Source: Escherichia coli
GTDB lineage: Bacteria > Pseudomonadota > Gammaproteobacteria > Enterobacterales > Enterobacteriaceae
Reading direction: 5' to 3' (one strand)
Length of the DNA stretch: 64,000 bases
NCBI RefSeq assembly: GCF_003334255.1
Contig: NZ_QOWU01000012.1
Shown: piece after piece, positions 54,351 to 54,593 of the stretch
Layout of the letters: each line of letters opens with the position of its first letter
How positions within the stretch are numbered: the stretch's first letter is position 1
Position numbers and translations under genes: made by a program
Notes under the pieces: model-generated
Database searches by the model: none
What the model saw: only the letters and a program-made list of their open reading frames with translations
What the model was told of the DNA's origin: nothing

Positions 54351-54593
54351 TGTTTTATCAGGCTCCTCCAGATAATTGTCGTCATGCCGGAAACCCCTGG
54401 CGGGGCTATTTTACCGCGACAATTCATTCAGATCATCAATAGTCAGGGAAGGAAGTAGCAACATTAGCTAACTAATCAATGCGTTGATTGTAAATCCAGC
54501 TAAGAGGTGAGGTTTTCAGAGCAGACAACGGTGAAATGTCATGGTATTGTTACGTTTAGGTAACAAGAAATTTGTCTGCACAAGGATTACATC

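Follow-up and report, generated by a model that had tools for sequence, protein, structure and literature searches.

The 243-bp region between the divergent genes ynaI and ynaJ in the 64,000-nucleotide stretch of Escherichia coli DNA analyzed here (hereafter referred to as the window) is an unoccupied IS5 target site, which almost certainly represents the ancestral, never-occupied state in a wild-type, non-K-12 close relative of the faecal isolates G1/2, G6/7, and G8. E. coli K-12 MG1655 carries the IS5 copy IS5F at exactly this position, and the two loci form a pair of occupied and unoccupied IS5 sites of textbook form.

The ynaI-ynaJ spacer and its occupied counterpart in MG1655

The window covers the pyrF-to-dgcM region of the E. 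coli chromosome, with mppA located upstream of ynaI-ynaJ and uspE and fnr located downstream, and the gene names at the matching positions of annotated genomes agree with those assigned in the window (Table 1). The ynaI gene is 100% identical to that of MG1655. The spacer has a G+C content of 42% and contains no open reading frame of at least 40 amino acids according to the ORF list, and the 16-bp terminal inverted repeat of IS5, GGAAGGTGCGAAYAAG, has no match in the whole 64-kb window even with up to three mismatches allowed. Both results are in accord with an earlier note made from the sequence, which had described a 243-bp spacer devoid of a transposase ORF and of terminal repeats. No sigma-70 consensus promoter was recovered by a promoter and terminator scan of positions 54251..54700, and a literature search retrieved no dedicated study on the promoters or the native regulation of the ynaI/ynaJ spacer. 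Likewise, an Rfam search of all 64 kb at the gathering threshold returned nothing in the spacer, its sole match being the sRNA McaS/IsrA at the expected place between abgR and smrA. A weak terminator-like hairpin followed by a T-run is present on the plus strand of the spacer near the start of ynaI (54385..54402); there is no plus-strand gene upstream which it could terminate, and it may be a chance match or, read on the opposite strand, part of the 5' leader of ynaI.

Table 1. Features of the window discussed in the text, with positions counted from its first nucleotide.
Feature	Position	Strand	Description	Basis
ycjD (DUF559) ORF	9740..10186	-	3' end differs at 9852..9890	
ycjV, ABC transporter ATP-binding protein	39247..40329	+	360 aa, intact	ORF list
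ynaI, low-conductance mechanosensitive channel	53319..54350	-	343 aa, intact	ORF list and annotated genomes
Divergent ynaI-ynaJ intergenic region	54351..54593		243 bp, uninterrupted	
14-bp stretch ACATTAGCTAACTA	54461..54474		Three IS insertions in other lineages	Genome comparison
Unoccupied IS5 target site	54468..54471		Single CTAA	Overlap of BLAST blocks and MG1655 flanks
ynaJ, DUF2534 small membrane protein	54594..54851	+	85 aa, intact	ORF list and annotated genomes
sRNA McaS/IsrA	62885..62980	-	116.6 bits	Rfam

In MG1655 (NC_000913.3), ynaI (b1330) is located at 1394891..1395922 and ynaJ (b1332) at 1397365..1397622, and the annotation lists an "insertion sequence:IS5F" of 1195 bp between them (1396044..1397238), containing insH4 (b1331), which reads toward ynaJ. 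A BLAST comparison of the window with MG1655 1341001..1409000 yields three colinear blocks (1..9890, 9852..54471, and 54468..64000), the second and third of which overlap by the four nucleotides CTAA in the window and lie 1195 bp apart in MG1655. In MG1655, IS5F lies between two copies of CTAA, of which the window has only one, and the MG1655 sequence without IS5F and one CTAA is identical to the 243 bp of the window with 0 mismatches, the MG1655 spacer of 1442 bp being the sum of 243, 1195, and 4 bp. The ends of IS5F in MG1655 read GGAAGGTGCGAACAAG and the complement of GGAAGGTGCGAATAAG, and both terminal repeats are present there. Aligned to MG1655, the window does not contain an element of ~1.2 kb coding for an InsH transposase at 54351..54593. 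IS5 transposition duplicates a 4-bp target of the form YTAR, to which CTAA conforms, and the window thus has one YTAR copy at the position that is directly duplicated in the occupied allele, the flanks being otherwise identical. The IS5 copies of K-12 are known to be flanked by CTAA or CTAG, with "ynaI/ynaJ" representing IS5 copy 4 in BW25113 (PMC11677980), and b1331 has been described as a known IS5 element to the right of ynaI (PMC2072959). The earlier note had stated that MG1655 contains an IS5 (insH) copy here and would thus not share the short spacer; the annotation of NC_000913.3, the length of the spacer in that genome, and the survey of IS5 copies (PMC11677980) all bear out this statement, and the alignment identifies CTAA at 54468..54471 as the duplicated target.

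Over its whole length, the window is colinear with MG1655 1341469..1406771, and its sole insertions relative to MG1655 are two of 1 bp each. Two MG1655 segments are missing from it, 106 bp in ycjD and IS5F, the latter being the only mobile element annotated in the corresponding MG1655 span. Because of this colinearity and the lack of any insertion larger than 1 bp, the window is free of IS elements, as the earlier note had also maintained.

Strain background and distribution of the empty site

Over its 64 kb, the window shows 196 differences from MG1655, which are distributed as a mosaic: there are almost none in 1..24000, 36 in 34001..36000 (ycjQ-ycjR), none at all in a 4.4-kb segment that includes the site (50663..55038), and ~1% divergence over 55039..64000, beginning within uspE. 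Such a pattern is typical of recombination tracts. The divergence sets in at a boundary ~570 bp rightward of the IS5 site. In each third of the window, the best matches are G1/2 (NZ_CP060083.1), G6/7 (NZ_CP060061.1), and G8 (NZ_CP060057.1), three human faecal isolates from Germany whose names also designate constituents of the probiotic Symbioflor 2; the next matches include B-1109, MB06232, cM8a, and WP7-S17-ESBL-04, among others. The three isolates resemble the window in their 100.0% identity in the compared segments, in their empty ynaI-ynaJ spacer, and in an intact ycjV-type CDS (annotated with 1083 nt in G6/7), although bit scores just under the maximum indicate that a few mismatches exist in 1..42000. 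G6/7 and G8 also differ from the window in carrying an IS1A inside mppA (interrupting it at 12906..13603 of the G6/7 locus), whereas mppA of the window (51634..53268) is intact. A 777-bp extra segment in these two genomes was considered as an IS element in the ynaI-ynaJ spacer, but was rejected as it is identical with this IS1A in mppA.

Some further loci distinguish the window from MG1655. The ycjV gene is intact because of an extra G at position 40201 (relative to MG1655 1381775), whereas the MG1655 annotation lists ycjV and ymjB as frameshifted pseudogene fragments. At 9852..9890 of the window, MG1655 contains 106 bp more, bounded by an imperfect direct repeat of 39 bp, and the C-terminus of YcjD differs accordingly between MG1655 (117 aa) and the window (148-aa ORF); this difference is polymorphic among the close relatives, as the matches of B-1109 and MB06232 include the extra 106 bp. 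Moreover, the small annotated gene ymjC contains an extra T at position 49125 (compared with MG1655 1390698). In G6/7, the annotation of the same stretch is that of an NAD-dependent dehydratase pseudogene remnant, and for this reason ymjC and ymjD may not be real genes but gene debris.

The distribution of the occupied and empty sites was assessed in 5426 complete E. coli genomes. A probe of 200 bp across the ynaI-side IS5F junction, counted only if matched over its full length, detected the K-12 junction in 355 of these genomes, with one copy each and always on the chromosome. Names and sizes were inspected for a spread sample of 60 of the 355 carriers, and all 60 are either named K-12 derivatives or genomes of K-12-like sizes (4.50 to 4.79 Mb), including MG1655, W3110, BW25113, DH1, DH5alpha, JM109, MC4100, and XL1-Blue, as well as J53, EC600-type recipients, HB101, NEB and ER strains, and O16:H48 isolates. 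Since the restriction of the junction to K-12 is judged by name from this sample, a rare wild carrier may be conceivable. A second probe of 100 bp centered on the insertion point showed the site to be uninterrupted in 5057 genomes (93%), including O157:H7, UPEC, UTI89, strain C, and environmental isolates. In about 12 genomes, the intact site, the K-12 IS5, and the IS1A junction are all missing; three of them are without the region and one is FDAARGOS_943, and in ~8 further genomes the site is interrupted or lost. The empty site is therefore the norm of the species, and the IS5F copy is an already known marker of the K-12 lineage.

These data allow the inference of a non-MG1655 background, which the earlier note had based on the empty site and the intact ycjV, to be assessed in its parts. 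The background itself is supported by the 196 differences, the intact 360-aa ycjV, the 106-bp difference in ycjD, and the nearest relatives G1/2, G6/7, and G8. The empty site contributes to this conclusion by excluding K-12, but is not distinctive as such: as it occurs in ~93% of the genomes, it indicates nothing more specific. Consistently, none of the three features expected of a K-12 lineage, i.e., IS5F at ynaI/ynaJ, a frameshifted ycjV, and near-identity to MG1655, was found in the window.

Origin of the empty site

The position of the IS5F insertion, the duplication of CTAA, and the identity of the flanks follow directly from the alignment with MG1655. The event behind them was almost certainly the transposition of one IS5 (IS5F, 1195 bp) in the K-12 lineage into the CTAA matching 54468..54471 of the window, which duplicated the 4 bp and divided the divergent promoter region, so that 121 bp of it adjoin ynaI and 126 bp adjoin ynaJ. 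The distribution across genomes, together with parsimony, points to this direction, i.e., a gain in K-12 and not a loss in the strain of the window.

The opposite direction would require that the strain of the window descends from a K-12-like ancestor containing IS5F, which was then removed by precise excision, restoring the single CTAA. Taken by itself, the sequence of the site would be equally compatible with a never-occupied site and with precise excision, which would likewise leave one CTAA and no scar. Moreover, no difference from MG1655 occurs in the surrounding 4.4 kb, which indicates very recent local shared ancestry with K-12. However, a K-12-like ancestor is difficult to reconcile with the 196 differences, with a ycjV gene that is intact in the window and frameshifted in K-12, and with the 106-bp difference in ycjD. 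All of the most similar genomes, which come from wild isolates of faecal, wastewater, and clinical origin, are empty at the site, and the junction occurs only in K-12-type genomes, as far as the sample of 60 carriers shows. Precise excision also requires two events, a gain and then a rare precise loss, whereas ancestral emptiness does not need any event in the lineage of the window. We therefore regard excision as highly improbable. An assembly artefact, in which a real IS copy was collapsed or skipped by the assembler, deserves equally little credence: IS copies are well known to cause errors in assemblies, but a collapsed repeat normally leaves contig breaks at the ends of the IS, whereas the junction in the window is seamless, has exactly one target copy, and matches the K-12 flanks with 0 mismatches. 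The window also contains no IS5 end anywhere and shares the uninterrupted sequence with 5057 independent complete genomes. Both explanations are thus rejected because of the phylogenetic distribution and the quality of the junction, which leaves a spacer that was never occupied as the preferred reading.

The practical significance of the feature is limited to little beyond strain typing, as the absence of IS5F marks the window as non-K-12 E. coli. It has been reported that a second IS5 next to ogt in some W3110 and MG1655 stocks leads to high-frequency deletion of ynaJ-uspE-fnr by recombination with b1331 (PMC2072959), and a strain with the empty site does not contain this IS5 substrate for the deletion. 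In addition, the divergent control region of ynaI and ynaJ is intact in the strain of the window, which therefore provides a better reference than K-12 for the native regulation of these genes.

Insertions near the IS5 site in other genomes

A view on the other genomes with an interrupted spacer shows that three IS elements have been inserted within 14 bp. In NCTC11121 and NCTC9966, an IS1A with a 9-bp target duplication, ACATTAGCT, is found at 54461..54469; IS5 in K-12 occupies the CTAA at 54468..54471, and FDAARGOS_943 contains a 915-bp element of the IS5 family with a programmed-frameshift transposase at 54472/3..54474, flanked by a target duplication of 2-3 bp, (C)TA. These three genomes share the locus of the window, and their insertions are located at most 14 bp from the K-12 IS5 site; the insertions are absent from the window, and the elements, duplications, and lineages differ. 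The insertions of IS5, IS1A, and the 915-bp element are independent events in separate lineages. Five YTAR motifs occur in the spacer, three of them at 54464..54475, and the A+T content of the clustered stretch is ~60%; both features plausibly explain the clustering of the two IS5-family elements. It appears rather doubtful that the 14-bp stretch is a true E. coli hot spot of IS insertion, beyond the clustering of YTAR motifs alone. If it is, local DNA structure, binding of nucleoid proteins, or selection for altered expression of ynaI, ynaJ, or the fnr region could be the cause.

The site in the window is an ordinary unoccupied IS5 site and belongs to already known biology. Among its closest counterparts is the MG1655 locus (1394891..1397622), which has the same genes in the same order and orientation as well as identical flanks over 50663..55038, but differs in harboring the IS5 element with its imperfect 16-bp terminal repeats and the CTAA duplication in the extended spacer, in place of the 243 bp and single CTAA of the window.
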